A stretch of DNA of 64,000 bases from Candidatus Eiseniibacteriota bacterium (lineage in GTDB: Bacteria > Eisenbacteria > RBG-16-71-46 > CAVPCR01): the NCBI GenBank assembly GCA_963823555.1, contig CAWGMA010000004.1:640001-704000 (forward strand), read 5' to 3'. The position numbers and the translations under genes are program-made. Below, piece by piece: positions 6,222 through 63,390 of the stretch (positions are counted from its first letter, which is position 1; each line of letters opens with the position of its first letter). Under the pieces are notes generated by a model. The model ran no database searches, had not been told where the DNA came from, and saw only the letters and a list, made by a program, of their open reading frames with translations.

Positions 6222-6236
6222 CCTTGTTTCGCTCCT

Positions 6237-10033: not shown

Positions 10034-10097
10034 CGCGGGCCTCCTTTCAATTGAAGGGAGAGAGGATAGGCGGGGCGCCGCGGCCGCGGACGGGACG

Positions 10098-13436
<3,339 letters not shown>

Positions 13437-13494
13437 AATCTCCGATTTTGAGTGCTATACCGTCCGTGGCCATTGTGCCGAGCCTGCGTTGTTG

Positions 13495-20533: not shown

Positions 20534-20923
20534 CGCTGTCTTTTCTTGGCGCTCGGATCGAGGAGCAAGTGGGAAAGGGGCGAGCTCGAGCGTTGGCGTC
20601 GAGCGGAGACCTCGGGCGGACGGCACCCGATTTCAGTCATTGATGATAGCATGGCCGTGAACCGGAGGGATAGTCGACAAGCGCAGCCGGGATCGGAGCT
20701 TGGACCTCCAGAGCGCCCGCCCCCGGTCCGCGAGCATTGACAAGTGAGGTGCCGCACGTCGGGGTTGCACCAATCATCATTCCATTGTGTGAATCGAGAT
20801 GTCGTTGACGCAACCCAAGGTACGAGTGGGGCGTAGACTCCTTCTGTATACCGGGCGCGGAGTCTCCTTCGCGCCGGGGACGGACCCTTCCACCACCCAG
20901 CGGCCGCGGCCGGGGAGACGTTC

Positions 20924-41813: not shown

Positions 41814-42185
41814 GTTCGCTCCGATCGAGCGCCATCGTGGTAGAGGGCGTGCGTGCCGTCGGCGCGAGGCTCTCGATCTCGTGTCTGCGCCGAGTCAAGA
41901 TGGGATCGAGTGCTTCCTCGGCCCATTGGCGATTCCATCTTGGGGATGGGACAATTCGCGGACTGATGACCTGCCCCCAGTGTGTGGTCTCGTGAGCAGG
42001 ACTATACACGTTCCCGTAGCTTGCCGGGAGGGAATCAACTTCGGCGAGCATCCACGGTGGGGAAGTGCGAGGGTGATACCGTTCGCGGCGTCAGACGTCT
42101 GGAGCGCCCACCTGCCGGCTGTGCGATCGGCAGGCCGGTAGTGCCGAGGGAGTGAATGCGTCATATGTCCCCGTGCGTGTGAGTG

Positions 42186-42194
42186 TGATAGAAT
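42186..42194 (+). promoter_or_regulatory. Possible extended -10 promoter element
   Basis: TGnTAGAAT about 75 bp upstream of the ATG at 42268. Confidence 0.3.
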
Positions 42195-42267
42195 GGCATC
42201 AAAGCAACCGGCGCAAGCAAAAGGCCCCGCCGGACCTCATGAGCCAGCCCCCTGCACGGAATTTCCA

Positions 42268-43869: not shown

Positions 43870-43890
43870 GAACCTGGCACCCGGCCGCCC

Positions 43891-46800
43891 TCAGAAGCGA
43901 CACAGCGCGTCGTCGGGCACGGTGACCTCGATCTGCGCGATGCCCCCACACCTCGCGAGGAGCGCCTGGCTGGTCTCTGGATCGAGCTCGTCGCCGGCGA
44001 CTTCGCGGATCTCCCCATCGCTGCCGGTGATGCGGATCGCCGCGACGTTACGGCTCCGCCTGTAGATGATGGGTACCTGGCAGAAGGTGAAGGCGAGCCC
44101 ATCCGCCGGCACCTCGATCGAGATCGGATGCCCCTCGAGGTCATGGAACCGGGCGCGCCCGCCCTCCCGCCGGAACTCGCTTGCCCGGAGCAGCACCGGC
44201 TGAAAGCTCACCACGCCATCCGCTGCGCGCACGCCCAGCTCCCCGAATCGGGTCAGGATCTCCTCCTTGACCTGTCCCGTCATGCCCGGTTGCTGCGCCC
44301 CGGCGTGCGCGGGGGTATGGGAGTAGGGGTCGGTGGGGAAGGCGCCGTATTCGCCGACGCGTCTTCTCGAAGCCGAGGCCGGAGCGGATGCGATAGTAGA
44401 AGCCGACCAGCGCCTCCTGACGTCGCGCTCGACTCCTCCTCGTGGATCGGCCCGCAGGGCTACCTCCTGCACCGCGAGCAGGAGCTTCGCCACCATGTGC
44501 CAGTAGATGCAGCCCAGGCCTTCGTAGCCGTACATGGTGCCCGAGCGGCCGGTGAAGGACCGGTGATCGAAGACCGCCTCGAAGACATCGAGGACGGCCT
44601 GGCGATCCCGCGTCACCGCCAGCGCCCAGCGCTCCTCCTCGGCGAGCCGATCCAGGGCTGCGGCGACATCGAGCGCATTGCGGAAATCGCTGTTGAAGCG
44701 GTAGATGCCGAGCGGCATCCCGCGCCAGGATCGAGCGCTCTCCCGCCGCGATCAGGTCGCGGAGGAGCGGCACCGCCAGGACGCGCTCCGGCGGAACCAC
44801 GTTCGCGATCGAGGAACTCCGGCAACTCCCGGGCCGGATAGAGGAGGAAGCTCCGCTGGTCCTTCCGGTAGAGCTTGCTCTTGAAGAGGATCGAGAGAAG
44901 ACGTGCCGCCTCCTCCGGGTCCACGACGCCGGAGCTCAACGCCGCCACCTGACCTTCGAGCATCTCGTAGAGCGGGCGGATGCCGGCCGCCGACCCATCG
45001 GGGGCCATCACCAGCAGGTTGTAGGCGTGGTAGAGCCCGTCGGCGCGCCGATTGGCGCGGATCGCATGGTCGATGAAGGCGAGAGCATGCGCGAGGAGCT
45101 CCTCGATCTCCGCCGTTTCCAGCTCCTCCTTGCCCGAGAAACCGCTCCGGTACACCGTCTCCCGATAGGCGGAGAACGCCTCGCCCAGGGCGTCCAGCAC
45201 CTGCTTCCGATCGCGGTCTTCGAGCGCCGCTGAACCGAGGAGCGGGCGGCTCTCCGCCATGATCACGCCGAGTCGCCGCAACCACGCCGCGACCTCGGTC
45301 GAGATCGCGACCGTGTCGCCGTCGAGATCCGCGAGAAGCTCGGCCACGAAGCGGAGATAGCGCCGCAGGTAGCACAGGGTCACCACCGAGAGTCCATGCC
45401 CGACCAGCGCATTGTTGGCGTCGTTCCACTCGGGTCGCTGGGTGTTCATCCAGATGCCGCCGTCGGGAACGAGGTTCGACAGCTTCGAGAGCGCCGGGAG
45501 GAGGAGCTTCTCGACGAGGTTGACGCGGTAGATCGTGCCGTCCCGATCGGGAAGGAGCTTGCCATCGGCGCCGATGGCGCGGACACGCTCCTCGATCCGC
45601 GCCGCCAGCTCCGTGTCGAAGACGATGGTGTGGTGCGGATCGGCGAGGATCTCCCGGTACGGCTTCAATCGGTAGGGAACATCGGCAAAGGAGAAGATCT
45701 CGCGCGTGAGGAGGCCTTCGAGCGCGCCGGGGGAGACCCGCACCAGCGCCTCGATCAGCTTGAGCAGGTAGATGATCTGATGGTCGCCCCAGTATCCGAT
45801 GTTGCTCCACGGGTCGTCCGGATCGACGGTCTCCCAGTCCATCCCGTCGGAGGTGACCCGATAGGGATTGAAGCCATCGATCGTCGACATGTTGACGAAC
45901 TTGGTGACGAAGCTCGGGAGGAACATCGGGAAACTGAGGCTCAGGGCTTCCCAGTTCTGGAAGATGTCACGCCAGTTGCCCTCGTAGTAGGAGCGCGCGC
46001 GTGCCGTCCTCGTTCTTGACCCGGATCTCGAACCGGTTCCAGGGACGGCTGGGGTCGCCATGGCGCCGTCCGAAGTAGAGCGGCAGGTACTCCCGGCTCA
46101 GTCGTTCGAGATCCGAGTCCCCCGTGCTGTCGGCCGCGCGGAGGAGATCGGCCAGCGCGATCTCCGCGGGGAGCGAAGCGACGAGAGCCTGATGGCGGTC
46201 CGCCACCGACCGCTGGCGCCGGCGCAGGAACCGGAGGAAATCCGCCGTCGGGATCCGGTCGTTGTCGGCGAACACCCCGCCTCGCATGTTGTTGAAGAGA
46301 ACGTTGGCGAAGTGATGGGCACTCGCCTCGCGATGGGCCGTGAACTCGAGCCCGTCGGCGCTGGCGACGATCCGGCACAGGTTGTCGGAGGCCTGGTCGA
46401 GACTGTTCTCGATCGCCTCGTCGAGGCGGTGTTGGGTGAGGAGCCGGGCGCGAAGCGCCGCCAGCTCGATGTGGTCCGAGACCCGCATCGGCGACGAGGT
46501 GCCACCGGGCTCCGGCGCCAGGCTCGAGATCGAGCGCAGCGGTGGCCAGGTAGTTGCCCCGCCTCCCGGTCAGGAGGTTCTCGGAGCGGAGGCGCTCGCC
46601 GCGGCGAAAGGCCTCGACCGCGTCGGCCGAGACGAGGATGGCGGCGTCGTCGAGCCCGGCACACCAGACCGCGTTCGCCCGGAGCTCCTCCGAGGCCTCG
46701 GCTCGATCCACGATGCGCGACGTGAGGGAGAAGATCCCGAGTCCGGTCTCCAGGTCGCAGTCCACCCGCTTGTAGGCGTCGACGAGACTGCTCGATCCCT

Positions 46801-47363
46801 GCTGCAGGGCGAGCGGCACGCCGTGGGGCATCACATTGCGGAGGCCGTCGAGGAGGGAGACTCGAGCCGGTCGCGAGTCGAGATTCTCGATCATCGCCGT
46901 CCGCACGAGCCCGAAGGCGTCACATGCCGACCAGCGGTAGCGGAAGGCGAGCCGGAGGTCGTGGTTGACCTCCTCGAAGACGAGTCGATTGCCGAGCGTG
47001 TTCTTGTAGAGATTCCGCTCGACGCTGAAATCGCCCCCGCAGGTGTCGGCGAAGGGTTGCCAGAGGGTGGTCGTGCGCTGGTCGCGGCGGACCCGGAACA
47101 GGGTGATCGGCCCGGTGTGGTGGTGAGCGTGGTGGAGCTTGTCGACCGTCTCGTAGGGGAAGAGGCACCCATCCGGCATCGATCCGGCCTGCGGTCAGGC
47201 CGCCGCCGGAGGAGATGAACATCCACAGATCGGTATCGCTGGGGATGCTCATCAGGAAGGAGGGCATCAGGTGATAGGAGGAGATCCGATAGGACTCCTC
47301 GCCATCCACCGTCGTGAACTCGCCGGTTGGTTCGGAGATGCCGCTGACTACGGTCGTCGCCAT
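43891..47363 (-). CDS. Probable GH149 beta-1,3-glucan phosphorylase (~1150 aa, several apparent frameshifts)
   Basis: LWMFISSGGGLTAGR, HFANVLFNNMRGG, EYLPLYFGRRHGDPSRPWN, YEGNWRDIFQNWEAL, IGYWGDHQIIYL, IWMNTQRPEWNDANNAL, YEMLEGQVA, YEGLGCIYWHM, AFPTDPYSHTP...QQPGMTGQVKE. Confidence 0.75.
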
Positions 47364-47540
47364 AGCTGCTCGAGTTCCGGCGAGTCGTCGCGGATCATCA
47401 TCGCGAGGGCACGAGGGTCCCACCGCGCCGCGACATCGCGCCCGATACGAGCTGCGCCTCAGGCCGACTGAGGCGCAGCTTCTCGTGTCCGCGATTCTCG
47501 CGCCGGCCTCCGGCGGCCAGGGAGCCGCCGGCCGGCGTCG

Positions 47541-48473
47541 TCACTTGATCAACGTCATGCTGCGCGATGACCGGCCGAGCGGCGTCTCGAGCACGTAGTG
47601 GTAGACGCCGGCAGCAGCCGGAGAGCCGTTGGCCATCTTGCCGTTCCAGGTCGCCTGATGGGGACCGGCATCGAGCTGGCCCTCGAGCAACGTGATGACG
47701 AGGCGGCCGCCAACGTCGTAGATGCTGAGATCCACCGCGCTCTGCTCCGTGAGGTCGAAGCGAATGAGCGTGGCCGGATTGAAGGGATTCGGCACGTTCG
47801 GGTGCAGGACGAGCGACTGGGGCGCCGGCGCCGGAGCGTCGGACACGCCGATCACGAGTTCCTGCAACGAGGCGTCGTCCCAGAAGATCGATCCGCTCTG
47901 GGCGCCGTCGATGTCGACCTTGACGATGACGGCGTGGACCGTGGCCGTGTTGGGCGGCGCCGGAGCCGTGCCGCAACCGAGCAGCGTCCACTCATCCTGC
48001 GGCGTGGTGGCATCGATCAGGTTCGACTCGAAGATGTCGACGCCGAACAGGCCGCCGGCAGCCAGCTGGCCGCTCGCGTCCCGGAACTCGATCTTGTAGA
48101 CGCCGAAGTCGACATCATCGATCGGGTCGGTGCTCGAGTTCATGGCCCAGACCTCGCCGTTCCAGGTCTCGCCGGGTTCGGCAGGCAGTGCTTGGGTGCC
48201 GCCCGAGCCGCCCGCGGGAACGAAGGGGCCGAAGGTCTTCAAGCACTGCGCTCCGGAGCGGAACAGGGTGGCCGTCGTGAAGACGTTGTTGAAGGTGTCC
48301 CAGTCGGCGGTGCCGGGCACATCGCCGCCCGAGGCATCCGGCGCCTCGAAACCGGGATTCAAGAGCTGGGCGGATGCCTCTCCGCCCACTCCCACGAGGA
48401 ATAGAGTCCCTGCGACCATGACGCAGCCCCAGACCAGGGTCCTTGTGAAGGACATGGCGCGCTCTCCTTTCAT
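47541..48473 (-). CDS. Secreted CBM-like beta-sandwich protein with FlgD-Ig tail
   Basis: Signal peptide ending ASA; QLLNPGFE...IFWDDASL domain; tail PNPFNP...IYDVGGRLV...WNGK...GVYHY. Confidence 0.8.
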   Translation of the reverse strand: MKGERAMSFTRTLVWGCVMVAGTLFLVGVGGEASAQLLNPGFEAPDASGGDVPGTADWDTFNNVFTTATLFRSGAQCLKTFGPFVPAGGSGGTQALPAEPGETWNGEVWAMNSSTDPIDDVDFGVYKIEFRDASGQLAAGGLFGVDIFESNLIDATTPQDEWTLLGCGTAPAPPNTATVHAVIVKVDIDGAQSGSIFWDDASLQELVIGVSDAPAPAPQSLVLHPNVPNPFNPATLIRFDLTEQSAVDLSIYDVGGRLVITLLEGQLDAGPHQATWNGKMANGSPAAAGVYHYVLETPLGRSSRSMTLIK

Positions 48474-48587
48474 GCCTCCGGTCGCGACATCCCGACGCCG
48501 GCGCTGCTGCTCGCGCCGGGCCCCAGGGTAGCCCCCGGAGGATCGGGGGCACCCTGGATGGATTCGAAACCGGCTAGGGGCGATCGA

Positions 48588-49239
48588 CTAGAACAGGCTC
48601 TTGATCTGACCCCAGGAGCTCGGCTCGACGGGCACCGGGTCATCGATGAACAGCCGGGCGTCGTCCCAGAAGATCGATCCGCCCTGAGCGCCGTCGACGT
48701 CGACCTTGACGATGACGGCCTGGGCATAGGCGGTGTTCGCCGGCGCGGGAGCCGTGCCGACGCCGAGGAGCGTCCAGACGTCCAGCGGCGTGGCGCCGCT
48801 GATCTGATTCGACTCGAAGACGTCGACGCCGAAGATGCCGCCGGCGGCAAGCTGGAAGTTCACATCGAGGAACTCGATCTTGTAGACGCCGAAGTCGACG
48901 TTGTCGATGGGATCGAGGCTCGAGTTGAGCGCGATAGATCTCGCCGACCCAGGTCTGACCGGGCACGGCCGGGAGCGCCTGCACGGCGCCGGAGCCGCCG
49001 CCCGGGGCGAAGGGCCCGAAGGTCTTGAGGGACTGCGATCCGCTGTGGAAGAGAGCCGCGGTGGTGAAGACGTTGTTGAATGAACTCCAGTCGGCCGTAC
49101 CGGGTACGTCACCGCCGGACGCGTCCGGCATCTCGAAGCCGGGGTTGAGGAGCTGGGCGGATGCCGTACCCGCCATTCCCATCACGAGGAGAGACAACAT
49201 GGCTGCGACGCCAACTGAGAAACGGTTGCGCTTGGTCAT
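48588..49239 (-). CDS. Secreted CBM-like protein, close paralogue of 47541..48473, ending in PVEPSSWGQIKSLF (1 apparent frameshift near 48933)
   Basis: ORF 48640..49239 gives the signal peptide and QLLNPGFE...; ORF 48588..49112 gives ALNSSLDPIDNVDFGVYKIEF...IFWDDARL...SWGQIKSLF*. Confidence 0.8.
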
Positions 49240-49352
49240 GGCTCACGACGCCTTTCCGAGTTGAATCCATCTTGGTCGGGCCGTTCCCGTCGCGGCCATC
49301 CGTGGATCATGGGCCGTCCCTGGGGCCGCGAGGATGCCTGCCCGACTTGACC

Positions 49353-49425
49353 TTGACATCCAGGGCTCCATCATACACTATGTTCGCCAGGCGAACAAAG
49401 CTCTTTTGTTCGGGGCGCGAACAAA
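49353..49425 (+). promoter_or_regulatory. Sigma70-type promoter followed by two tandem operator palindromes (putative ROK repressor sites)
   Basis: TTGACA at 49353-58; -10 is TACACT (49374) or CACTAT (49376). Operators are TATGTTCG-ccagg-CGAACAAA (49379-99) and TTTGTTCG-gggcg-CGAACAAA (49405-25). Confidence 0.75.
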
Positions 49426-49467
49426 GATCCAGCCCTGAGGCCCCGCTCAGGGTGCCAGGGAGACCAG

Positions 49468-50490
49468 GTGCGAGCCGACGGCCAAGCCACAGCCCCGCTC
49501 CTCGAGGTGCGCGAGATCCGCAAGGCCTTCACCTCGCACGGGTTCTTGATCCCCAGTGAGAACGACTGTTGCGGCCCGGGACGTGTCGTTCACGAGTGGA
49601 CCGGGGGGAGGCGGTGGCGCTGGTGGGGGAGTCTGGAAGCGGCAAGAGCACGGTGGCCCGGCTGGTCCTCCGGCTCGAGACGGCCCGATGGCGGGGAGAT
49701 CCGGCTCGATGGGGAGGACGTGCTGGCCCGCGAACCGCGCCGGGCCTCGCTCGCGCTACCGGCGGCGGGTGCAGATGGTCTTCCAGGATCCCTTCGGCTC
49801 TCTCAATCCCGTTCACACGGTCGGCCATCATCTGCTGCGGCCGCTCCTGCGCCATCGATCGCGTCGACGCCAGCGGCGGCGCGGGCGCAGGGCCCTCGAG
49901 CTTCTCCGCACCGTCGGGCTCGAGCCGGCGGCGGAGTTCATCGATCGCCACCCCTACGAGCTCTCCGGTGGCCAGCGGCAGCGCGTGGCGATCGCCCGCG
50001 CGCTCGCCGTCGATCCGGACCTGCTCGTGGCCGACGAGCCGACCTCGATGCTCGACGTCTCGATCCGGATGGGAGTCCTGAACCTCCTCGCCGAGCTCAA
50101 GCGAGAACGCAGGCTCGCCATCCTGCTCATCACGCACGATCTCGCGTCGGCCCGCTATCTCGCCGACCGGGTGCTCGTGCTCTATCCGCGGGCGGGTCGT
50201 CGAGGACGGCCCGAGCGCGGCGGTCGTCGCGGCCCCGGCGCATCCCTACACGCGCGCGCTCCTCGCCGCGATCGCTGACGCCGGTGAAGCGGGTGATTCC
50301 GCCGCCGTGCCGGCCGCCGCCGCGGCCGCGACCGGGGAGCTCGACTCGACACGCGGCTGTCCCTTCGTCGCCCGCTGCCCGGAGGTGCTCGACCGCTGCC
50401 GACGCGGTGGATCCGGCGCCGCGATCGGCCGATGACCGGCTCGTGCGCTGTCACCTCTATCCCGAGGACGCGCACGCGGCACGGAGCTGA
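49468..50490 (+). CDS. Opp/Dpp-type ABC ATP-binding subunit, OppF-like (frameshifted)
   Basis: [74 protein letters not shown]...C...VRCHL. Confidence 0.85.
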
Positions 50491-50496
50491 GCGGCG

Positions 50497-51914
50497 ATGG
50501 GTCGCGTTCGTCCTTCCCGGACGGATTCCTGTGGGGTGTCGCCACCTCGGCGCAGCAGATCGAGGGGGCCGAGCGGGAGGGCGGGCGCGGCGAGTCGATC
50601 TGGGATCGCTTCGCGGCGACTCCCGGCAGCGATCGCCGACGGCTCGGACGCCGAGCGTCGCCTGCGATCACTACCACCGCTGGCGCGGAGGACATCGAGC
50701 TCATGCGCTGGCTCGGCGTGGGCGCCTATCGCTTCTCCATCGCCTGGCCCCGGATCCTGCCCCGCGGGCGCGGTGCCGTCAACGCCGACGGGCCTCGACT
50801 TCTACGACGCGCTCGTCGACGCGCTGCTCGAAGCCGGCATCCGGCCCTTCGTCACCCTCTACCACTGGGATCTGCCGCAGGCGCTCCAGGACGAGGGCGG
50901 CTGGGCCGCGCGCGACACGGTCGACGCTTTCGCCGAGTACACCGATCTGGTGACGCGCGCGGCTCGGCGACCGCGTCGCGCACTGGGTCACGCACAACGA
51001 ACCCTGGTGCGTCGCCACGCTCGGCTACGAGGAAGGGCAGCACGCCCCGGGCTCACCGCGATCCCGCCGAGGCCCTGCGCGTCGCCCACCATCTGCTCGC
51101 TCTCCCACGGCCGGGCGGTCGAAGTCCTGCGGCAGAACGCGCCAGGGAGCCGAGGTCGGCATCGTCCTCAACCTGACGCCCGCCATGCCGGCCTCGCACG
51201 ACCGCGGCCGATCGCGGATGCCGCCCGCCGGTTCGACGGATCCTTCAACCGCTGGTATCTCGATCCGCTCTTCCGCGGGCGCTATCCCGCGGACGTGATC
51301 GCGGATCGCGTCCGGCGGGGCCATCTGGCCGGCCTCGATCTCCCCTTCGTTCACGCCGGGGACCTCGAGACCATCGCGCACGCCGCTCGACTTCCTCGGG
51401 CGTCAACTACTACAGCCGGGTCGTCGTGCGGGCCGGCGACGGACGGCGAGCCGGTCGCCGTTCCGCATGGTGCCCGACGAGGAGCTCACCGACATGGGCT
51501 GGGAGGTCTATCCCGCAGGGTCTCCACGATCTGCTCGTCCGCCTCGATCAGCGAGTACCGGCCGCCGAAGATCTACATCACCGAGAACGGCGCCGCCTAC
51601 GGCGACGCGCCCGACGCCGACGGGCCGCATCGCCGACGCGCGCCGCGTCGACTTCCTGCGCGGCCACCTCGCCGCGGCGCACCGCGCGCATCGCCGCCGG
51701 CGTGCCCGCTCGCCGGCTACTTCGCCTGGTCGCTGCTCGACAACTTCGAGTGGGCGCACGGCTACACCAAGCGCTTCGGCCTCTACTGGGTCGACTTCGC
51801 CACGCAGGAGCGCATCCCCAAGGACAGCGCGTTCTGGTATCGCGACGTCGTGGCCGCGAACGCGGTCACCGACGAGCAGCAATCCCGCTGCAGCAATCCA
51901 CTCGAGGAGGCTAG
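50497..51914 (+). CDS. GH1 beta-glucosidase (many apparent frameshifts)
   Basis: [44 protein letters not shown] (acid/base), IYITENG (nucleophile), [18 protein letters not shown]. Confidence 0.9.
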
Positions 51915-51916
51915 CC

Positions 51917-54900
51917 GTGAGCTCGATCACGGACTGGACGCGGTCGACCGGATCCTGCCTCCCGGATCGTCGGTGGCGGCGGCCGTCGCTGATCATCATG
52001 AGCGCGGGCGCCGCCTCGGCCCAGGAGCCGCGGTCGCGGCGCCCAGACCCGAGCGTCCGCGTCGTCACGGACGCCGTCGGGCTCCAGGCTCCAGGTGGAC
52101 GGCCGCGACTTCATGGTCCTCGGCATGAACTGGGACTACATCCCGATCGGCGCAGAACTACGCCTACGACCTCTGGGAGCAGCCGGACGACGTCATCGAG
52201 GCGGCGCTCGCCCGGGAGATGCCGCTCCTCAAGGCGATGGGGGTCAACGCGATCCGGCAGTACGTCGGGCATCCCGCCGCGCTGGGTCCAGTACATCTAC
52301 GAGCGCTACGGCATCTACACCGTGCTCAACCATCCCGTGGCGCGCTACGGCTACACCCTCGACGGCGTCTGGATCCCGTCGGTCGACTACTCCGATCCCC
52401 GCCTCCGCGCCGCCGTCGACGGCGGAGATCGTCGACCATGGTCGAGGAGTTCCAGGGCGCCCCCGGCGTGCTGATGTGGCTGCTCGGGCAACGAGAACAA
52501 CTACGGGCTCTCCTGGACCTCCTTCGAGATCGAGGCGCTGCCCGAGGGCGAGCGCGACGCGGCCCGGGCCCGCCATCTCTACTCGCTCTTCGGCGAGATC
52601 ATCGCGCGCCATCAAGGCGCGCGACCCGCACCGCCCGGTGGCCATCGCCAACGGCGACCTCCAGTACATCGACCTCATCGCCGAGGAGTGCAAGGACCTC
52701 GACATCTTCGGCACCAACGTCTACCGCGGCATCTCGGCGCGCGACCTCTTCGAGGTGGTCGAAGGACGAAGCTCGGCATCCCGGTCATGTTCACCGAGTT
52801 CGGCGCCGACGCCTGGAACGCGAAGGAGATGCGCGAGGACCAGGTGACGCAGGCCCGCTACCTGCATCGGCCAGTGGCAGGAGATCTACGAGCAGTCGAG
52901 CGGCAAGGGCCGGGTCGGCAACGCCATCGGCGGCTTCATCTTCCAGTGGAGCGACGGCTGGTGGAAGTTCGGCCAGGACGAGCCGCCTCGACATCCACGA
53001 CACGCAACGCCTCCTGGCCCAACGGCGGCTACGCCGAGGACTTCGTCGAGGGCGAGAACAACATGAACGAGGAGTGGTGGGGCATCTGCGCCAAGGGCCC
53101 GCCCGACGCCGCGGGCTCTACGAGCTCTACCCGCGCGCCGCCTACTACGCGCTCCAGCGCGCCTTCCGCCTCGATCCCTACGCCCCCGGCACCGATCTCG
53201 CGGCGATCCGCGCCCACTTCGCCGCCATCGACCCCGTGGCGCGCCGCGCTCGAGGCGCGCGGCGACCAGCGCGAGCCTGCGTCGCCGACGTGCTCGAGCC
53301 GCGTCCGCGCTGAGCGGCGCTGCGGCTGGAGTTCGAGACCTACAGCACCGGCGGCGAGCGACATCACGCACCGCCCGAGCCGAGACGCCGCGGACGGCGC
53401 TGCCCGCCTTCCGCGGCTTCGACCACCTGGAGTCGTTCTACGCCGACTTCGAGGCGCAACCCGGCCGAGAACGTGATCGGCAACGCTCTCGCTCAACGTG
53501 CTCGGCAACGTCCCGCTGAATCCGATCGACGAGATCTTCTACGAGAACCGCGGCCGCCCGCGCACCGTGTCAGACGGACGGGGAGCTCGTTCGAGCTCGA
53601 AGGGCATCGAGCGCGTGAAGGTCTACCGCGCCAGCGTGTCCTGGGACGATCGCTGGTTCAAGCTGGACGGCTTCTACCGCACCGGCCACACCCACTGGGG
53701 CTACGAGGGCGACTTCTTCGGCCTCTACCGCGAGGCCTACTACGGCGAGAACATCGACATCTACAACGGCGAGGCGCCGGTCGGCGTCGAGATCGCGGGC
53801 CGGAAGGCGCTCGACGGGGCTGAAGCTCGCCTTCGGCCCGCAGCTCTGGTGGGGCGCCAACCCGGCGGTCATGCTCGAAGTACCAGCCGCCGCGGTCGGC
53901 CCGTTCGACGCCACCGCGCATCTACCAGGAGGACTTCGCCGCGCAGTCCACGGTCACCAGCTCGGTCGCGATCCCGCTGCCGCCCACGCGCAGGGCCACG
54001 CTCCACCTGGCGACCCGGACGCGGGCCGTTCGGCTATCGAGGTCGGCGGCATCTGGGCGGGCTCCACCAAGGTCGGCGAGCGCTTCCAGATCGCCGAGGA
54101 GATCGGCGAGGCAGCTACCGCGTCCTCCAGGACGAGTCGTGCGCACGCGCGACACCTTCGGCGCCAAGGCCAAGGTCACGATGCGAGGCGGGACGCTGGC
54201 ACTGGTACGCGCAGGGCGCCTACATGGGCCTCGTGGCCGACGGCGGGCCCGACCGCGACCATCACCTTCACCGGCTGGAGCCTCAAGGACACCGGCTCGG
54301 GCAACCAGGCGCAACGTCATCACCGGGCTCGCCGTGCAACGTGGGCAACTTCCAGATCGGGCCGAACTTCCTCTGGCAGAAGCCGATCGTCGGCCCGATC
54401 CCCGGCGACGTGCCCGCTCCCGGCCGGCCGCGCAACGTCCTCGACGATCCGTTCGCCGTGCGCGCCAACCGGGAGACCGTCGGCGGCGAGCTCCTGGTCG
54501 ACCTACGACCCGACGCCGGCGACCTGGATGTGGGCGTGGGACAACGACGTCCGCGAGGACGCGCGATCTCGCCGGCAGCCTGGGCTTCGTCTTCCGGCAT
54601 CTGCCGACCACCCAGGACGCAGCGATCGGCATTCTCGGCGAACGGCCGACGACCTTCGCGTTCCCCGGGGCCCCGCCGCCCCGCGATCTCTGGGAGGTGC
54701 AGGCGCGCGTCGTGTCACGCATGCGGCCGCGATACGCCGCCTCGTCGGCAACTGCCTTCGCCGGCACCGGCGAGCCGAACGGCAGACGATCCGCGGCTCA
54801 TCCACCGCTACGGCGGCGAGCGCTCGCGTCGCCTCGGGGCCGCATCGCCCTCGCGAGCCTTCGCCAAGTTCAACGACTGGGGACCCTACGACTACCACCG

Positions 54901-55154
54901 CGACTTCAACCTCACCTTCCCGGTGCAGCTGATGGGCGACATCTCGTACACGCTGGGCACGCCGCGCTGGTTCGGGTATCCGCAGACCCGCATCGGCGTG
55001 CGCGGCACCTGGCGCTCGCTCGACGAGTACTCGCCGCGCTACTGCCCGGCGACGGTCCCCGGCCCGGGCGGCACTCCGCAGTGCGACCCGACCGCCCCGG
55101 GCGCGAACGGGCGCGAGTGGGAGATCCGGACCTACCTGCACCTTGGCGATCTGA
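51917..55154 (+). CDS. Clan GH-A (GH2-like TIM barrel) glycosidase fused to a predicted outer-membrane beta-barrel (~1050 aa, many apparent frameshifts)
   Basis: GTG at 51917 with GGAGG RBS. GMNWDYIPIG, MGVNAIRQY, WLLGNENNYG, MFTEFGAD, FQWSDGWWK, MNEEWWGI. The C-half has amphipathic aromatic strands ending EWEIRTYLHL. Confidence 0.7.
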
Positions 55155-55169
55155 GGCGCGCCCGCGCGC

Positions 55170-56150
55170 CGTGCTGACTCGCCGCGCAGGTGACAGGCGG
55201 CGGCGTGGCCCGGGGCCGAGCTCGATGCAGCTCGGGCGGGTCCGCTCGCGGCAGAGATCCGATGGCGCGGTCGCAGCGCGGGTGGAAGCGGCAGCCCGAC
55301 GGCGGGTGCTCGAGGCTCGGCGGCGCGCCCGGGATGCTCGCCGAGCTCCGTCGTGTCGCCGCGGACCGAGGGGAAGGCGCGCAGGAGCCCCTGCGTGTAG
55401 GGATGCCGCGGCGTCGCGGCGCAGCTCCGCCGCCGGCCCGACCTCGACCAGCCGTGCCGCGTAGAAGACCGCCACCCGATCCGAGAACTGCAGCATGCGC
55501 GCGAGGTCGTGCGTGATGAAGAGCACGGCGAAGCCGAGCCGCCGCTGCAGCGCCCGGATCTGCTCGAGGATCTCCCGCTCCACGATGACGTCGAGCGCCG
55601 TCGTCGGCTCGTCGAGGATGACGAGCGCCGGCTCGAGCGCGAGCGCGAGCGCGATGCCCACGCGCTGCCGCATGCCGCCCGAGAGCTGGTGCGCGTAGCT
55701 GTCGAGCCGATCGGCGGGGATGCCCGACCATCTCGAGCAGCTCGCCGGCGCGCGTCGCGCGCCCGCGCCGGCGGGACGGCACCGTGCGCGAGCAGCGTGT
55801 CGACGATCTGCTCGCCGACCGTGATCACCGGGTTGAGCGCGTCCATCGCGCTCTGGAACACCATCGAGATCCGCTTCCAGCGCAGCTCGCGCAGCTCCGG
55901 CTCGTCGAGCGCGAGGATGTCGCGCCCCTCGAAGCAGCACGCTGCCGCCCGTGATGACCGCCGGCGGCGGCAGGATGCGCAGGAGCGCCTGGGCCAGCGT
56001 CGACTTGCCGCTGCCCGACTCGCCCGGCGATCCCCAGGATCTCGCCGCGCCCGACGTCGAGCGACACGTGATCGATGGCGCGCACCGGTCCCGCGGTCGG
56101 TGACGTAGTCGACGCAGAGGTCGCGGATCGGAGAGCAGCGGCTCAGTCAT
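55170..56150 (-). CDS. Opp/Dpp-type ABC ATP-binding subunit, OppD-like (frameshifted; 3' end approximate)
   Basis: [68 protein letters not shown]...ACHL. Confidence 0.85.
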
Positions 56151-57092
56151 GATCGCGCCACCACCGGTGTCGAGCGCGTCGGCTCCTGGCCGCGCGCGGC
56201 CAGGTAGCGCGCGCCAGGCGCGCTCGAGCTGCAGCCGCGGATTGGTGATCTCGTCGAAGCCCGAGTTGAGCATGGTGAGGCCGAAGCCGACGAGCGCGAC
56301 GCAGAGCCCGGTGGGCGCGAACGTCCACCAGGCGCCGGTCAGGAGCGCCGAGTCGTTCTGCGCCCAGTAGAGGTTCGTGCCCCAGGTGACGGCCGAGACG
56401 TCGCCCAGCCCCAGGAACTCGAGCCCCACCTGGGCGCCGATCGCGTAGACGGTGCTGCCGATGACCTGGGCCACGAGCAGCGACGTCATGTTGGGCAGGA
56501 TCTCGCGGGTGATGATGCGGAAGCTCGACTCGCCGGCCACGATCGCCGCCGGCGACGAAGTCGCGCTCGGCGCAGCGCCAGCGTCTGCGCGCGCAGCACG
56601 CGCGCGTTCCAGGCCCAGCCGGTGACGACGAGCACGAGCCCGAGCGTGAGCGGGCCCGGAGGGCAGGTAGGCGGCGATGACGATGGCGAGCGGCAGGCCC
56701 GGGATGACGAGGAACACGTTGAAGAGGAGCGAGAGCAGGCCGTCCACGCGGCCGCCGAAGTAGCCGGCGGTGACGCCCACGAGCGCGCCGACGAGGACGA
56801 CGACGAGGCCCACGCCGAAGCCGATCGCGAGCGAGATCCGCGTGCCGACCACGAGCTGCGCGAGCACGTCCTGCCCCTGGCCGGTGGTGCCGAGCCAGTG
56901 CTCGCGCCGAGGGCGGCTGGAGCGGGATGCCGACGAGCGCGTCGGGATCGCCCGACGAGCCAGGGACCGACGAGCGCGACGAGCAGGAAGACCGCGAGGA
57001 TGCGCGGCGCCGATCGTCGCCTTGCGGTCGCGACGGATCGCCTCCCACCAGGCCGCGATGCCGGTCGCCCGGCGATCGCCGGCGTCGCTCAT
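56147..57092 (-). CDS. Opp/Dpp-type ABC permease, OppC-like (frameshifted)
   Basis: HWLGTTGQGQDV, GVTAGYFGG, IPGLPL, EILPNM, LEFLGLGD...TWG, NPRL. Confidence 0.85.
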
Positions 57093-58081
57093 GACGCGGG
57101 CTCCCGGGTGCGCGGATCGAGCCACAGGTAGACGAGGTCGACGAGCCAGTTCGCGCCGAGCACCGCCAGCGTGATGACGAGGAAGATCCCCTGCATGAGC
57201 GGGATAGTCCTGGTTGCGCACCGCCTGCACGAGCAGGTAGCCCTGGCCGGGATAGGAGAAGACGATCTCGGTGAGGAGCGAGCCGCCGAGAACGAAGCCC
57301 GAGCGCCATGCCGAAGCCGGTGACGCTCGGCAGGAGCGCGTTGCGGGCGGCGTAGCGCAGCACGACGCGCGACGGGGGCGAGCCCCTTGGCCCGCGCCAG
57401 GTTGACGTAGTCCGAGCCGAGCATCGCGATCATGGTGTTCCGCATCGAGAGCAGCCAGCCGCCCAGCGTCGCCAGCACGACCGTGCCGACGGGCAGCACC
57501 GCGTGGCGCACGACGTCGGCGAGGAAGGCGAGCCGAGAAGCCCGGCGTCAGGTCGTCGCCGTAGGCGTGGCCCAGCGGGAAACCAGCCGAGCGTGAAGCC
57601 GAGCACGTAGAGCGCCACCATGGCGAGCCAGAAGTAGGGAAACGCGCCGAGGAAGACGAAGCGTCGAGGGCAGCCACGGTGTCGAGCCAGCCGCGCCGCC
57701 ACCAGGCGGCGGCGACGCCGAGGAGCGTGCCGATGGCGAAGCTGACCACCACCGCCGTGCCGGCCAGGAAGATGGTCCAGACGAGCCCGGTGCCGATCAC
57801 CTCGGCGACCGGGCGACGGGAAGTAGGCGACCGAGATGCCGAGGTCGCCCCGCAGCACGTGCGCGAGATAGGTGAAGTACTGGCCGAGGAGCGGCGCGTC
57901 GGTGAGGCCGAAGGTCTCGCGCAGCGCCTCCATCGCCTCCGGGCTCGAGCCGGCCGCGGAAGCGCGCGAAGAGCGCGGTGGCCGGATCGCCGGGCATGAG
58001 GCGGGGCAGGAAGAAGTTGAGCGTCAGCGCCACCCACGCCGCGAGGAGGTAGAAGCCGAGTCGTCGCAGGATGTAGCGCAC
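57089..58081 (-). CDS. Opp/Dpp-type ABC permease, OppB-like (frameshifted)
   Basis: GTG at 58081 with GGAGGA RBS. FFLPRLMPGDP, QYFTY...GDLGIS, ARAKGL, RNALLP, TEIVFSYPG, DYP, LDPR. Confidence 0.85.
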
Positions 58082-58092
58082 TCGACGTCCTC

Positions 58093-59778
58093 CTAGCGCG
58101 GCGTGAGGGTGGTCAGGACGAGCAGGCACTCGCCGCGGTCGAACTTGTTCGGCGACGGATCGGCGTACGGATGCTCCGCCGACGGGAAGCCCGTCGAAGC
58201 GGCTCGTGTTGTACTCGGCCCAGGACGGGTTCGGGTAGAGCGGGATCGCCGGCGCCTCGGCGACGAAGATCCGCTGCAGCTCGTCGGCGAGCCGGTCGCT
58301 GGCGTCGCCGGATCGGGCTCGCGCTCGAAGGCCGCGAGCGCCGCGTCGGCCGCGGGCTGCCGTAGCGGTGCCAGTTGCCCATCGACGCTCTCGCCGATCG
58401 GGCTTCACCGTCGCCGAGGACATGAGCCAGCGGTAGAAGAGGTAGGGCGTCGGCCCCTCGAACGACCACCCGAGGCTCAGGTCGAAGTTCCCCTCCTGCA
58501 CGCGCTGGAACCAGGCGCTGAAGTCGTAGGTGCGCACCGAGGCCGTCGATGCCGAGCTCGCCGCAGACCGCGGGCGATCACCTGGGAGGCGCGCACCCAG
58601 TCCGACCATCCCGAGACGGTGAGGATCTCGTAGCGCCAGGGCTCGCCGTCGGGCAGGCGCCGCACGCCGTCCTCGCCGCGCGCGATAGCCCGCCTCGTCG
58701 AGGAGCGCCTCGGCGCGGGCCAGGTCGTAGCGCACCCAGTCGTCCGTCGGCGGCGATCTCGGGATCGTGCCAGGCGGCGTAGGCGTCGCTCAGGCCCGTG
58801 GCGTCGGCCGGGCGCGAGTAGCGGTAGAGCGCCACGTCGACCAGGAGCTCGCGGTCGATCGCCATGCTCAGCGCCTTGCGCACCCGCACGTCGTCGAACG
58901 GGGCGCGGGTGGTGTTGGCGTAGAGGAAGATGGTGCTCCCGGTGAGCGGGAACCAGTAGCGGTGGTGCTCCGGATTGCGTCCGACGAAGACGCGGTCGAT
59001 GGCGGGGACGAAGTTCCCGGCCCAGTCCACCTCGTCGAAGACCAGGGCCAGGTTGGCGCGGTCGTTGGCCGGATAGGCGGGGAAGCGGAGCGCCGTCGAT
59101 GCGCGGCCGGCCCTCCTGCCAGTAGCGCGGGTTGCGACCGAGCTCGTAGACCTGGTTGCGGAAGACGCGCACCTCGGTGAAGGGGCCGGTGGCCACCGGG
59201 TTCTCGTTGGGGAACGTCACCGGATCCGCCACCTCGCTCCAGACGTGCTCGGGCACGATCTGCTGCGCCGCCACCTCGTCGAACCCGGGGATGAAGACGC
59301 GCTGGAAGCGGAAGTCGACCGTGCGCTCGTCGATCGGCGACCACGCCATCGAGGAAGCCCCAGACGCCGCGGCGGTCGAGCGCCGGATGCGCTGCAGGAG
59401 CGTCGAAGGTGAACGCGACGTCGCGCGCCGTGAAGGGCTCGCCGTCCGACCAGAGCACGCTGTCCCGGGTCGTCACGCGCAGCACGCGGTTCCCGTCGCG
59501 CCACTCGTGCGCCGACCGCGAGCCACGGCACGTACTCGCGCTGCACGCTGTTGAAGACGAAGAGCGGCTCGTAGATGCCGGCGAGCGTGGGCCAGCGGGC
59601 GGCGGTGGCGGTCGTGAGCGGGTTGAAGTTGCGGATCCAGGAGGCCTGCTGCTCCTGCGAGACCACGAGCACGCCTTCGGGAGCCCGCGGCCGTTCCCGG
59701 ACGCAGGCCGCGTCCCGCGACAGCGACGATCGACAGAGCCATGGCGAGCGTCGCCGGCGCGTGCCGGACGCTCATCAT
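58093..59778 (-). CDS. Family-5 (OppA-like) solute-binding protein, probably oligosaccharide-binding (frameshifted)
   Basis: RNFNP, IYEPLF, PWLA, WSDGEPFTARDVAFTF, IVPEHVW, PVATGPF, PFDDVRVRKALSMAIDR, GWSDW, PAIPLY. Confidence 0.85.
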
Positions 59779-60611
59779 CTCGAACCTGTAGACGCGCACC
59801 CAGTCGACGAGCATGGTCTGCGGGAAGTCCGTGCTCGCGTTCGGCGGGCCGACGAAGTGGCCGCCCACCGCGACGTTCAGGATGATGAAGAACGGATGGT
59901 CGAAGACCCAGCGCCCGCCGGTCGGCAGGCTCGCGCGGAGTGACGACGCAGGTAGGGGATCGTCGTCGACGAACCAGGTGATGCGGCTCCGCTTCCCACT
60001 CGACCGCGAAGACGTGGAAGTCGTCGTCGAAGCCCGCGTCGCCGGAGAGCGTGTAGCGGCCCGTCACCGCGCTGCCGCCCGAGTAGCCCGGGCCCGTGGA
60101 GGCTGCCGTGGAGGATCTCGCGGCTCCTGACCGCGGTACTCCATGATGTCGATCTCGCCGCACGCGGGCCAGCCGACCGTCGTCGAAGTTGGCGCCGAGC
60201 AGCCAGAACGCGGGCCAGATGCCCTGGCCGACCGGCAGCGGATCCGCGCCTCGAAGCGCCCGTGCGTCTGCTCGAAGATGCTCGCGGGTGTTGATGCGCC
60301 CCGAGGTGTAGCTCCGCCCCTGGTAGGTCTCCTCGCGCGCGGTGATGGCGAGGTGGCCTGCGCCGTCGAGCGAGACGTTCTCGGGCGGTCGGTGTCGTAC
60401 TCGAGCTGCGCGTTGCCCCAGTCGGTGCCGATGTCGAAGCGCCAGCGTGGCGGCATCGGGCGACTGCCCGGCCGGTCCCTCGAACTCGTCCTCCCAGACG
60501 AGCTGCCACTCCGCCGAGTCCTCGTCGCAGCCGTCCTGCAGCCGGCGAGCACGAGCGCAAGCGCCGCCAGCAGAGCCAGTCGAACGGAACGATCTGGTGC
60601 CTGCGTCTCAT
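59772..60611 (-). CDS. GH16 endo-beta-1,3-glucanase (laminarinase type), probable lipoprotein (frameshifted)
   Basis: LVLAGC (lipobox-like), LVWEDEF, WGNAQLEYD, YTSGRI, GRFEARI, WPACGEIDIMEY, DFHVFAVEW, FPQTMLVDWVRVY. Confidence 0.85.
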
Positions 60612-61836
60612 GCGTTCTCCGTGCGCCGCGCCGCCGACCGGGAAGAGGCGCGAGTCGGCGAGCGCGGCCTTGAGCACCAGGGTCGCGGCGCCGACCGCCA
60701 CGGCCTGCGGTGCCGAGCTCGCTGGTCCGGATCTCGGCGGCGGCGACCGAGCTGACGAGCGTGCGGCCGCGAACCGTCTCGCGCAGCGGCTCGAGCAGCA
60801 GCTCGCCGAGCCGCGCGAGCCCGCCGCCGAGGATCACGAGCGACGGGTTCATGAGGTTGAGCAGACCGGCGACGGCGATGCCCAGGTGCTCCGCGGCTTC
60901 CCGCACCACCTGCAGCGCCAGCGGATCGCCGGCGAGCGCCGCGTCCTCGATGGAGGTCGATGGTGAGCCCGTTGCCGGCGAGCGCTGCTTTCGGGGTGAT
61001 CGGCGGAGCAGCGACGCGCGCGCGCTCCACCAGCGCCGGCGCGCCGACCAGGGTGGCGAGGCAGCCGCGCAGCCCGCAGATGCAGGGCTCGCCGTGCGGA
61101 TCGATGGCCAGGTGTCCGATCTCGCCGGCGACGCCGGTGGCGCCGCGGTAGATCTCGCCGCCGATGACGTGACCCGAGCCGATCGCCGGTGGCGACCTTG
61201 ATGTAGGCGAAGTCGTCGACGCCGCGCCCGGCGCCCCACCAGTGCTCGGCCAGCGCGCCGAGGTTGGCGTCGTTGTCGACGAGGAGCGGCACGCCGAAGC
61301 GCGCGCGCAGCGCCTCGAGCCCGCTCTCGCCCCGCCACTCGGGAAGCACGACCTCCGAGAGCCGGTCGGGATGCGAGGGATCGACCGGGCTGGGGACGGC
61401 GACGCCGATGCCGACCAGGCGCTGCTGGCCGCTTCCGGCGTCGCGCAGGCAGGCGTCGCAGAGCTCGGCGATGAGGGCTCGCGTGCCCTCGGGATCGGTG
61501 CGCACCGGGTGATCGCGGTGCTCGCCAGGCGAGCACGCGGCCGCGCAGATCGGTGAGCGCCACCGCGACGTGGGCCGCGCCCATCTCGACGCCGAGGATG
61601 CGCAGGCGTCGTCCTGGAACTCGAGCACGATCGGCCGGCGGCCGCCGCGCGAGCGGGCCGGCGCCGACCTCGGCGACCAGCCCGGTCGGCGAGGAGGCTG
61701 CCGACGATCTCCGAGACCGTGGAGCGCGAGAGATCGGCGCGCCGGGCGATCTCGGCGCGCGAGATCTGGCGCTCGTGCCAGATCAGCCGCAGCACCGAGT
61801 CGGCGAGGGGGCGCGCGCGGGTCGGATCGGCTCGCT
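60608..61836 (-). CDS. ROK-family transcriptional repressor (frameshifted; start codon appears corrupted)
   Basis: HTH ISRAEIARRADLSRSTVSEIV, GGRRPIVL, VDNDANLGALAE, GEIGH...CICGLRGCL (Zn motif), NLMNP, LGGG. AGGAGG RBS at 61842-47. Confidence 0.9.
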
Positions 61837-61881: not shown

Positions 61882-63243
61882 CTACCTGTGGAAGTACACG
61901 TTGTCGATGTACGCGGTGCTCGTGTCGCCCGAGATGATGAGCTGGGCGAGATGCGCCCGGCTCGTGAGGCCAGTGAACTCGCCAGCGGGATGTCGAGGCT
62001 GACCCATGTCGCCGTGACGAGCGGGGGCGTGGTGGCGGCGTTGAACGTGAGCTCGTGCTCGCTGTCATCGCCGCCGCCGAAGATCGCCGTCCGCGCCGAA
62101 GTCGACGAGCTTGACCCGGAAGACGTTGCCCTCGGGCACCCAGACGTCGAGATGGAAGTGCGTCATCGCCGTGGCGTCGATGGTCTCGGTCGCGAACTCG
62201 ATGCCCGCGTAGATGAGGTTCGTGTAGACCTTGACGTCGTCCCCGGCGATCTCGAGGTCGGTGACGTCGGCCAGGTCCCAGCCCGCCGACCAGGTGTCGA
62301 CGGGGACATCGCTGTAGACGTTGCTGAAGAGCGAGATGACATCCGCGGCGGGAAGCGTCGGCGCCGGCGCCGGCGTGTCGGGCGGGGCGATGGCCATCAC
62401 GTTCACCTCCCCGGTCGCCTCGACCGTGCCGAGCTTGGCGGTGATGACGGCGCTGCCGCCTCCGACCACCCGGATCTCGCCCTCGGTCGTGAGGGCCACG
62501 CTCTCGTCGGAAGAGATGTAGGTGAAGTAGCCGGGCATGTGAGCGATGGTCTCGTCGGTTCCGTCGACGTCGAAGATGGTCTCGGTGCCGTCGATGGGCA
62601 CGGTGGCCCCGACGAAAGCGCTCACCTCCCGCGATTCCATGCTCGGCCGCGGGTTGGTGATCGTGCCGACCTTCTCGAACATGATCTCGTCGAACCAGAC
62701 CTGGTGGCCTTCGTTGCCCTCGGGTCCTTCGGCGAAGAAGAAGAGCCCGCGCTCGGACGCGAGTCGCGCCGGGAGCGGGATCGGGATCACGTACTTCGTC
62801 CAGGTCGTGGTGAGCGGGATGCGGCTCCAGCTGGCCTCGTACTTCGAGGTGCCGGTGTTGTCGTTGCCGAGCCCGGCGATGTCGAGCGTCGTGGGCTTGC
62901 TCGACTTGGCCCAGAAGGTCAGGGCGTCGTAGCCCGAGAGGTCCCGCACGACGTCGGCGGTGAAGGCGCCGCCGGCGTAGCCGCCGTCCGGATCGCCGGC
63001 GCGGGGGATCTCGACCCGGAGCGACGCGGTGCCCTCGTAGGCCTCGTTCGTGTCGATGAAGACGGCGTCGAGGTTGGAGCCGAGGAAGGCCTGGAACTCG
63101 ACCGCGCCGGTGAAGCCGTCCTGGAAGACGATGGGGTCGGTGCTCAGCGGGTAGGGCTTGAGTCCCGAGGTGTCGCGCTCGCAGCCCGCAGCCAGGATGG
63201 CGAAGAGGGCCAGCGTGGCAGTCACCGGAGGCGAGTATCTCAT
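61882..63243 (-). CDS. Surface lipoprotein: CBM-like domain + Ig-like domain + 'PAPTxxAADVISLFS' domain (putative glucan-binding; frameshifted near the 3' end)
   Basis: Lipobox LAAGC; RDLSGYDALTFWAK...WTKYVIPIP...WFDEI; Big_2-like YISSDESVA...GSAVITAKLG; APAPTLPAADVISLFSNVY; ends YIDNVYFHR*. Confidence 0.75.
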
Positions 63244-63340: not shown

Positions 63341-63390
63341 CTTTGTTCGGCCTGCGAGCAAAGTATGCGGGGGCGGTGGCTGATTGTCAA
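63341..63390 (-). promoter_or_regulatory. Sigma70 promoter immediately followed by a third operator palindrome
   Basis: Minus strand TTGACA (63390-85) - N17 - CATACT (63367-62); operator cTTTGTTCG-gcctg-CGAGCAAAg at 63341-63363. Confidence 0.8.

Follow-up and report, generated by a model that had tools for sequence, protein, structure and literature searches.

A gene of about 1060 codons (51917..55154, + strand), found in a 64,000-nucleotide stretch of a Candidatus Eiseniibacteriota genome (contig CAWGMA010000004.1, positions 640,001 to 704,000; hereafter the window), is predicted to encode a fusion of a clan GH-A glycoside hydrolase (GH) with an outer-membrane beta-barrel. Based on sequence comparison and structural models, we suggest with moderate confidence that this fusion is an outer-membrane pore for pieces of beta-1,3-glucan whose own periplasmic glucanase would act as a sink, making uptake independent of TonB. 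Taken by itself, the role of the barrel as an import pore is predicted with rather more confidence. In the proposed mechanism a surface lipoprotein would gather the glucan, secreted GH16-type enzymes would shorten it and the oligomers would diffuse through the barrel, where conserved aromatic loops would constrict the lumen. On the periplasmic side, the enzyme domain fused below the pore would cut the oligomers as they arrive, which would keep an inward gradient without energy from TonB, and an ATP-binding cassette (ABC) or major facilitator superfamily (MFS) carrier may then bring the products to GH149 and GH1 enzymes in the cytoplasm.

The C-terminal half of the fusion is almost certainly an outer-membrane barrel. 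An original prediction, made from the letters of the window, had set its start near 53300 and its length at about 600 residues; we find it from ~53303 with ~605 residues (53303..55151, +), after a short helical linker (53258..53302, +) that leads directly into strand 1. Only ~15 residues separate the enzyme from strand 1 in the model, hence no plug domain is present. Structures were predicted by AlphaFold on intact homologues, not on the frameshifted window copy. The C-terminal half alone (90 sequences) was modelled with 24 strands, a predicted local distance difference test score (pLDDT) of 89.6 and a predicted template-modelling score (pTM) of 0.84, and the full-length homologue (150 sequences; pLDDT 89.6, pTM 0.81) gave the same count, with the barrel at residues 413-1016; the strands were counted from predicted secondary structure, omitting short hairpins inside loops. 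The models and fold matches agree with the predicted layout of GH-A domain plus membrane barrel, and the C-terminal half was not modelled as a soluble domain, the outcome that had been named as speaking against this layout. Most strands show one hydrophobic face and an opposite face with conserved Arg, Lys and Glu. Loops 3, 4 and 11 are as conserved (0.86-0.97) as the enzyme, and the aromatic loop 3 (HWGYEGDFFG; 53678..53779, +), which is also conserved in barrels that lack the enzyme, is a candidate sugar-binding constriction.

All fold matches listed for the barrel are membrane barrels, with identities of at most 12% and TM-scores of at most 0.38. AlgE is the top match (Z 16.6, root-mean-square deviation (rmsd) 5.2, 277 residues aligned), with MOMP at 15.7 and OccD porins at ~15; fimbrial ushers and MtrB are among the few matches that cover the whole model, and the Foldseek listing is headed by TonB-dependent transporters (TBDTs), at TM-scores of 0.33-0.37 only. 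Among the matches listed there is no close solved fold, which does not prove that the fold is new. The barrel is not identified by any sequence match in Pfam, NCBIfam or the PDB: Pfam and NCBIfam give no porin match, PF00593 is not matched at E up to 1 and the plug family PF07715 is not matched, a PDB sequence search with the whole protein returned 0 matches, and a PDB search with the barrel profile returned only two antibody light chains (E 0.6-1.3). In the ESM Atlas the barrel query found unnamed clusters at 0.96-0.97 and DUF6029 at 0.93. No description of this barrel was found in the literature searched, a body that mostly excludes subscription papers. As modelled, the barrel is plugless and belongs to no described family.

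The N-terminal half begins with a putative Sec signal peptide (51917..52021, +; ending in AASA, before QE) that was judged by eye; the homologues also have an N-terminal hydrophobic stretch that closes with an AxA-type site. It is followed by a clan GH-A (beta/alpha)8 domain (52055..53257, +), nearest to GH158, GH157 and GH2. The predicted acid/base Glu (GNENNY, end of strand 4; 52493..52495, +) and the predicted nucleophile Glu (FTEFG, strand 7; 52796..52798, +) are both conserved in 150 of 150 sequences, and in the modelled homologue, where residues 1-398 form the GH-A barrel, E146 comes after strand 138-143 and E246 lies within strand 242-247, as in clan GH-A. By fold, the best matches are GH157 (9FZ9; Z 28.5, rmsd 2.9, 311 aligned), GH2 (Z 27.5) and GH158 (Z 26.9), and all 50 rows listed are triosephosphate isomerase (TIM)-barrel glycosidases or their relatives. 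By sequence profile, GH158 leads (6PAL, E 1.3e-8 over ~190 positions; 9ORO, E 3e-6), followed by GH2 (7e-6); the GH2 TIM-barrel family PF02836 gives partial and weak matches of 21-35.5 bits, against a cut-off of 21, in six of six proteins. The sugar-binding and immunoglobulin (Ig)-like domains that flank GH2 were not seen in the Pfam scans or the model, and the C-terminal Ig-like domain of GH158 is absent from the model, where the barrel comes directly after the linker. Modelled in this way, the enzyme is a clan GH-A member to which no family is clearly assigned. It is likely a beta-1,3-glucanase, and the beta-glucan gene neighborhood described below supports endo-beta-1,3-glucanase activity; that the substrate of the fusion is beta-1,3-glucan is very probable. 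A protein search gave 5046 matches among 8000 scored candidates, of which the named ones carry labels such as 'glycosidase' or 'GH2 TIM barrel' and the nearest include Krumholzibacteriota and Eisenbacteria.

The links from odd to even strands are long (7-37 residues), whereas those from even to odd strands are mostly 2-6 residues, a pattern that puts the N-terminal enzyme on the turn side, which is periplasmic. The predicted barrel would have a porin topology, with both termini and the enzyme on that side unless the linker threads the pore, and the enzyme domain is probably periplasmic. The original prediction spoke of a 'cut-and-import' protein; given this topology, the order is corrected to a likely import and cut. 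An alternative is surface display, in which the barrel, as carrier or anchor, holds the enzyme on the outer surface, as in an autotransporter with a linker helix through the lumen, and laminarin is cut there and taken up elsewhere. We consider it unlikely. A helix (residues 391-409) does precede strand 1; yet autotransporter barrels have 12 strands, a count that the 24 predicted here do not match, and loops 3, 4 and 11 are conserved to the same degree as the enzyme that the barrel would merely carry. In favor of surface display, GH158 of Bacteroides uniformis is a lipoprotein whose location is not settled (PMC7157763), and FORMB_24670 of Formosa, which we place in the family by synteny, also accounts for 0.67% of the extracellular fraction (PMC6246565 Table S3), but both laminarin TBDTs of that strain likewise appear in the extracellular fraction.

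Barrels that are kept without the enzyme also argue against surface display. A barrel profile search of 1.84 billion representatives gave 585 matches at E up to 0.001, several of which are proteins of 564-624 residues that start with a signal-like segment, lack the enzyme domain and end in Phe; those with names come from Pseudomonadales, Oceanospirillaceae and one spirochaete. Fused and enzyme-free barrels have 61 positions in common, including HWxxEGDxFG and WGA. Among 80 metagenome loci 54 are fused, 22 enzyme-free and four unclear. The enzyme-free barrels are kept in glucan ABC operons: 17 of the 22 adjoin GH16, GH1 or a family-5 binding protein, several have LacI or glucokinase genes, and none lies beside a TBDT or a separate GH-A gene. 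A barrel that is kept without its enzyme beside an inner-membrane importer is best read as a channel, more than an anchor, so that of the two roles first offered for the barrel the channel gains over the anchor alone. In four of 31 full-length representatives (P0258, P0263 (Fibrobacterales), P0299 and P0374) both glutamates are lost and the barrel is kept, and these domains possibly serve for binding only or as gates.

As for their settings, enzyme-free barrels (L125-L148, L156) lie on marine Gammaproteobacteria-like contigs, beside family-5 ABC cassettes, GH16, GH1, LacI and glucokinase genes. In L133-L135 the barrel is beside a GH16 multidomain gene and a type I secretion cassette, and in L125/L127 it comes after type II secretion genes.

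The neighborhood of the fusion was compared across 102 related loci, 56 of which extend 8 kb or further on each side of it. Glucan enzymes are present in all 56, with GH16 in 53, the partner lipoprotein in 51, GH149 in 36, a ROK repressor in 32, GH1 in 26, MFS in 23, ABC in 19 and GH3 in 18; 42 hold either ABC or MFS. The original prediction had asked whether homologous loci lack TBDTs, and only one of the 102 holds one, there separated from the fusion by a citrate transporter gene. Pfam was run on 57 of the 77 unassigned long genes, the other 20 being partial fusions or repeats of annotated clusters, and a local TBDT profile that recovered eight of eight left-out seeds found no further TBDT in the 102 loci. 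SusC/D is not the norm in the phyla that contribute most of the loci, so the greatest weight falls on the 18 from Bacteroidota, and none of these has a TBDT. In the window's genome, which is 92.5% complete, three profiles did not find SusD (PF07980, PF12771) or LamB (PF02264). Across 206 genomes of the phylum the fusion was found in 70 (with a 71-residue in-frame piece), the lipoprotein in 72 and GH149 in 71; all three occur together in 65, none in 130, and one or two in 11. Pfam assigns Big_2 to 29 and CBM_11 to nine of 59 partner lipoproteins, and no SusD family to any.

These data can also be read as a gated or energized importer, in which the loops of the barrel or the enzyme domain shut the pore and the lipoprotein or a TonB/Exb-type motor helps to open it, as in SusC/SusD. 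An open 24-stranded lumen would be expected to leak; the lipoprotein comes directly after the fusion in all 17 Bacteroidota loci with room for it, which is the SusC-SusD gene order; and TBDTs lead the Foldseek listing, low as their TM-scores are. This importer is nevertheless improbable in our view. The barrel has no plug domain and matches neither PF07715 nor PF00593, no recurring TonB/ExbBD cluster was found among the annotated neighbor families, and the lipoprotein lies 7-10 kb from the fusion in a separate operon in this phylum and is undetected in most enzyme-free loci.

Other genes recur near the fusion in particular groups. In divergent clades among L140-L204 the fusion is followed by a conserved gene of 205-275 residues that has no Pfam match, and often another GH-A gene (~600 residues), separate from the fusion, is present as well; in other divergent loci of this set an uncharacterized gene of 423 or 558 residues follows it. 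L068, L070, L077, L079 and L105 have a CBM9-DUF5916 gene a few kb upstream.

The window copy of the fusion starts at GTG 51917, preceded by GAGGAGG, stops at TGA 55152-55154 and is broken in the assembly by 61 frameshifting indels. The motifs quoted for it (GNENNY, FTEFG, KVYRASVSW, FKLDGFYR, WHWYAQGAY, FQIGPNFLW, QLMGDISYTL, RIGVRGTW and WEIRTYLHL) were all found, spread over the three + frames, and a Pfam scan of the raw frameshifted open reading frames (ORFs) gave no match. The claim that they form one gene holds: a homologue from the same genus (L023) is a single ORF of 1076 codons with 83.7% DNA identity over window 52003-55154, and 92 of the 102 related loci have one full ORF, while eight are cut by contig ends and two are broken near residue 510. 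Two separate genes, considered as another possibility, are ruled out by the same ORFs. The two breaks (L083:3900-4010, L090:11490-11600) fall at the same variable loop and are probably assembly noise; the window copy has four compensating indels at this loop.

Gene decay is deletion-biased and accumulates stop codons. Against L023, the 61 indels of the window copy comprise 54 insertions and seven deletions, none a multiple of three; there is one new stop in 997 aligned codons, and differences are concentrated at third codon positions (23%, vs 14% and 11% at the others). Frameshift density is 13-22 per kb in the fusion, vs 8-20 per kb in neighboring genes (six comparisons). This pattern of indels, stops and third positions fits local assembly error better than decay, and the frameshifts are most likely errors of sequencing or local assembly. 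That this strain's locus, as opposed to the family, is a decaying pseudogene cluster is therefore very unlikely, although the breaks are concentrated in one 20-kb block (window 40001-60000), the most frame-broken of 230 in a largely clean genome, and the TBDT genes elsewhere in this genome are intact. Poor read cover of an accessory region would account for such a block. Sequencing runs that were searched gave word shares of only 5-6%, and none supplied reads of this strain for polishing.

Published data on Formosa bear on the direction of transport. FORMB_24670 is annotated there as GH2 or hypothetical; it is listed as having a signal peptide but no membrane helix, and it heads the gene order 24680, GH16, PKD, GH149, GH17, GH30, MFS (PMC6246565). 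This order agrees with the Bacteroidota loci analyzed here (L124, with the PKD protein in L114-L117). In the membrane fraction the protein reaches 1.19% on laminarin vs 0.006% on glucose, ~200-fold, and is membrane-enriched, with only 0.18% in the soluble fraction (PMC6246565 Table S3); in membranes it exceeds either of the two laminarin TBDTs (0.46% and 0.45%). Export or remodelling, in which the barrel and a periplasmic hydrolase would secrete or trim a self-made glucan, like BcsC/BcsZ or AlgE, is very unlikely: AlgE is the top fold match, GH149 is reversible (PMC5827456) and some GH17 enzymes are transglycosylases (PMC13188888), but AlgE is ahead of MOMP and the OccD porins by less than 2 Z, no synthase was found among recurring neighbors or the 57 scanned long genes (one GT4 only), the neighbors are importers, beta-glucosidases, glucokinase and catabolic repressors, and laminarin rather than glucose induces the syntenic gene of Formosa.

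Several points weigh against the proposed pore with its own periplasmic sink. Pore size, lumen filling and the side of the enzyme were derived from secondary structure and the lengths of the loops; of the turns after even strands, two are long (21 and 12 residues), and alternation is poor in strands 1 and 4. The enzyme is near-tied between GH157, GH2 and GH158 by fold, with mannanases within 2-3 Z. The co-occurrence counts draw on related genomes, which are not independent of one another, and many of the 22 enzyme-free loci are near-identical copies. Seven TBDTs are encoded elsewhere in the window's genome, the nearest ~70 kb away, and a fragment of a TBDT plug lies at the border of one fused locus (L184). 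FORMB_24670 was assigned to the family by synteny and annotation, not by sequence, and in Formosa two TBDT/SusD laminarin loci are retained in addition to the syntenic cluster (PMC6246565). The suggestion that the fusion fills the role of a missing SusC thus stands for the locus, and not always for the genome; by this synteny, the fusion would complement as well as replace SusC/D.

Chrysolaminarin accounts for 5-15 Pg of carbon a year, as cited in PMC6298971, and laminarin is a major marine carbon currency, while its uptake has been tracked mostly via SusC/D and other TBDTs. Clusters with GH149 but no susCD have been recorded, as have proteobacterial ABC clusters that lack an outer-membrane transporter, with no importer named (PMC5827456). 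One nine-gene Formosa locus is without annotated SusC/D in the portion seen of the PMC6298971 supplement, and a Muricauda cluster has a 'GH2 beta-glycosidase' upstream of GH16 and GH149, for which the accessible text of PMC13188888 mentions no barrel. The fusion family is a concrete candidate importer for such clusters. It comprises more than 5000 sequence clusters and was seen in Bacteroidota (including the gut species Bacteroides finegoldii), Gemmatimonadota, Ignavibacteria, Calditrichota, Myxococcota and Eisenbacteria/Krumholzibacteriota, and in enzyme-free form in Gammaproteobacteria. We consider it evenly balanced whether there is, beside TonB-dependent SusC/D and the sugar porins, a third route of polysaccharide uptake: widespread 24-stranded plugless beta-1,3-glucan pores, labelled 'GH2 glycosidase' in databases, in which the pore's own periplasmic enzyme pulls laminarin inward, a lipoprotein with carbohydrate-binding modules (CBMs) is the analogue of SusD and the marine Gammaproteobacteria use an enzyme-free form. 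If true, it would add a non-usher 24-stranded barrel and an enzyme-coupled pore. The enzyme-free barrels, the changed-Glu fusions, the phylum-wide co-occurrence and the link, by synteny, to published Formosa proteomics are new here.

In the window, the fusion is the last gene of a predicted operon, after an ABC ATPase gene (49468..50490, +; frameshifted, bounds approximate) and, directly upstream, a GH1 beta-glucosidase gene (50497..51927, +; frameshifted). A second operon faces it and holds, on the - strand, the partner lipoprotein (61885..63243; lipobox AAGC, with CBM11-like, Ig and repeated CBM-like domains), a ROK-family repressor gene (60622..61819), a GH16 beta-glucanase gene (59779..60529) and a family-5 ABC importer of binding protein, two permeases and ATPase (55100..59681; frameshifted, bounds approximate). 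A GH149 beta-1,3-glucan phosphorylase gene (43894..47366, -; frameshifted) and three FlgD-tailed proteins lie upstream of the fusion operon. Two copies of the palindrome TGTTCG-N5-CGAACA (49381..49423) precede the first operon and a third (63344..63360) the second; the pattern TGTTCG-N5-CGARCA matches these three sites, with five strand matches vs 0.03 expected, and was also found in 49 of 204 loci; where the fusion comes first in its operon, the site often lies no more than ~250 bases ahead of it. It is likely an operator bound by the ROK repressor.

Three genes, at 42193-43869 (+), 47541-48473 (-) and 48588-49239 (-), encode secreted proteins for which Pfam gives no catalytic match; two of the proteins carry a FlgD-type tail at the C terminus. 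The second and third genes form a tandem duplication, being 786 bases apart and 75-83% alike, and these proteins recur in many fusion loci of the phylum. Farther away, the window holds a glycogen/trehalose cluster (1162-15459, -) with GlgE, TreS-maltokinase, branching enzyme, GH57-DUF3536 and alpha-amylase-family genes, and a secreted protein of 1600 residues (15728-20548, -) with a GDSL esterase domain, many PKD domains, CBM96 repeats and a FlgD tail. Positions 28001-30000 are an outlier in composition (GC 0.75, GC skew 0.21), and no protein-like ORF was called there.

Comparison with known systems places the fusion between several of them. The GH158 (6PAL, 9ORO) and GH157 (9FZ9) endo-beta-1,3-glucanases, its best profile and fold matches, have in common with it the clan GH-A barrel and both aligned glutamates; identity is 15-21%, and a membrane barrel replaces the C-terminal Ig-like domain of GH158. 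The substrate-specific porins, with smaller barrels of 16-18 strands, resemble it through AlgE, OccD/OpdQ, MOMP, maltoporin and chitoporin (Z 13.7-16.6) in the plugless barrel, the long conserved loops and an inner face that is polar and rich in Arg and Glu, but they align only to about residue 465 of 608 with 6-10% identity, and none has an enzyme. The fimbrial ushers FimD and PapC also have 24-stranded barrels and are among the few that span the whole model (357-361 residues aligned, Z 11.5-13), yet with 8-10% identity, while the fusion has no plug or chaperone-binding domains in the model or by Pfam and no pilin or chaperone among its recurring neighbors. SusC barrels have 22 strands and a plug; the fusion has 24 predicted strands, no TBDT Pfam match, an enzyme in the place of the plug and a CBM/Ig lipoprotein in the place of SusD. 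The likeness lies in gene order: a large barrel gene, then a lipoprotein, GH16 and GH3, after a regulator, as in 1,3GUL of Bacteroides uniformis (PMC7157763), and in B. finegoldii the order is DUF6377 regulator, fusion, lipoprotein, GH16, two further genes and BglX. The MFS-GH17 fusion of Formosa (FORMB_24740) likewise combines a transporter with a glucanase and lies in a laminarin cluster of the same kind; for this fusion the authors suggest better use of sugars (PMC6246565), although it is an inner-membrane carrier and not an outer-membrane barrel. By analogy, the fusion may work like a SusC/D pair or a sugar porin in the same slot, while belonging to neither family.

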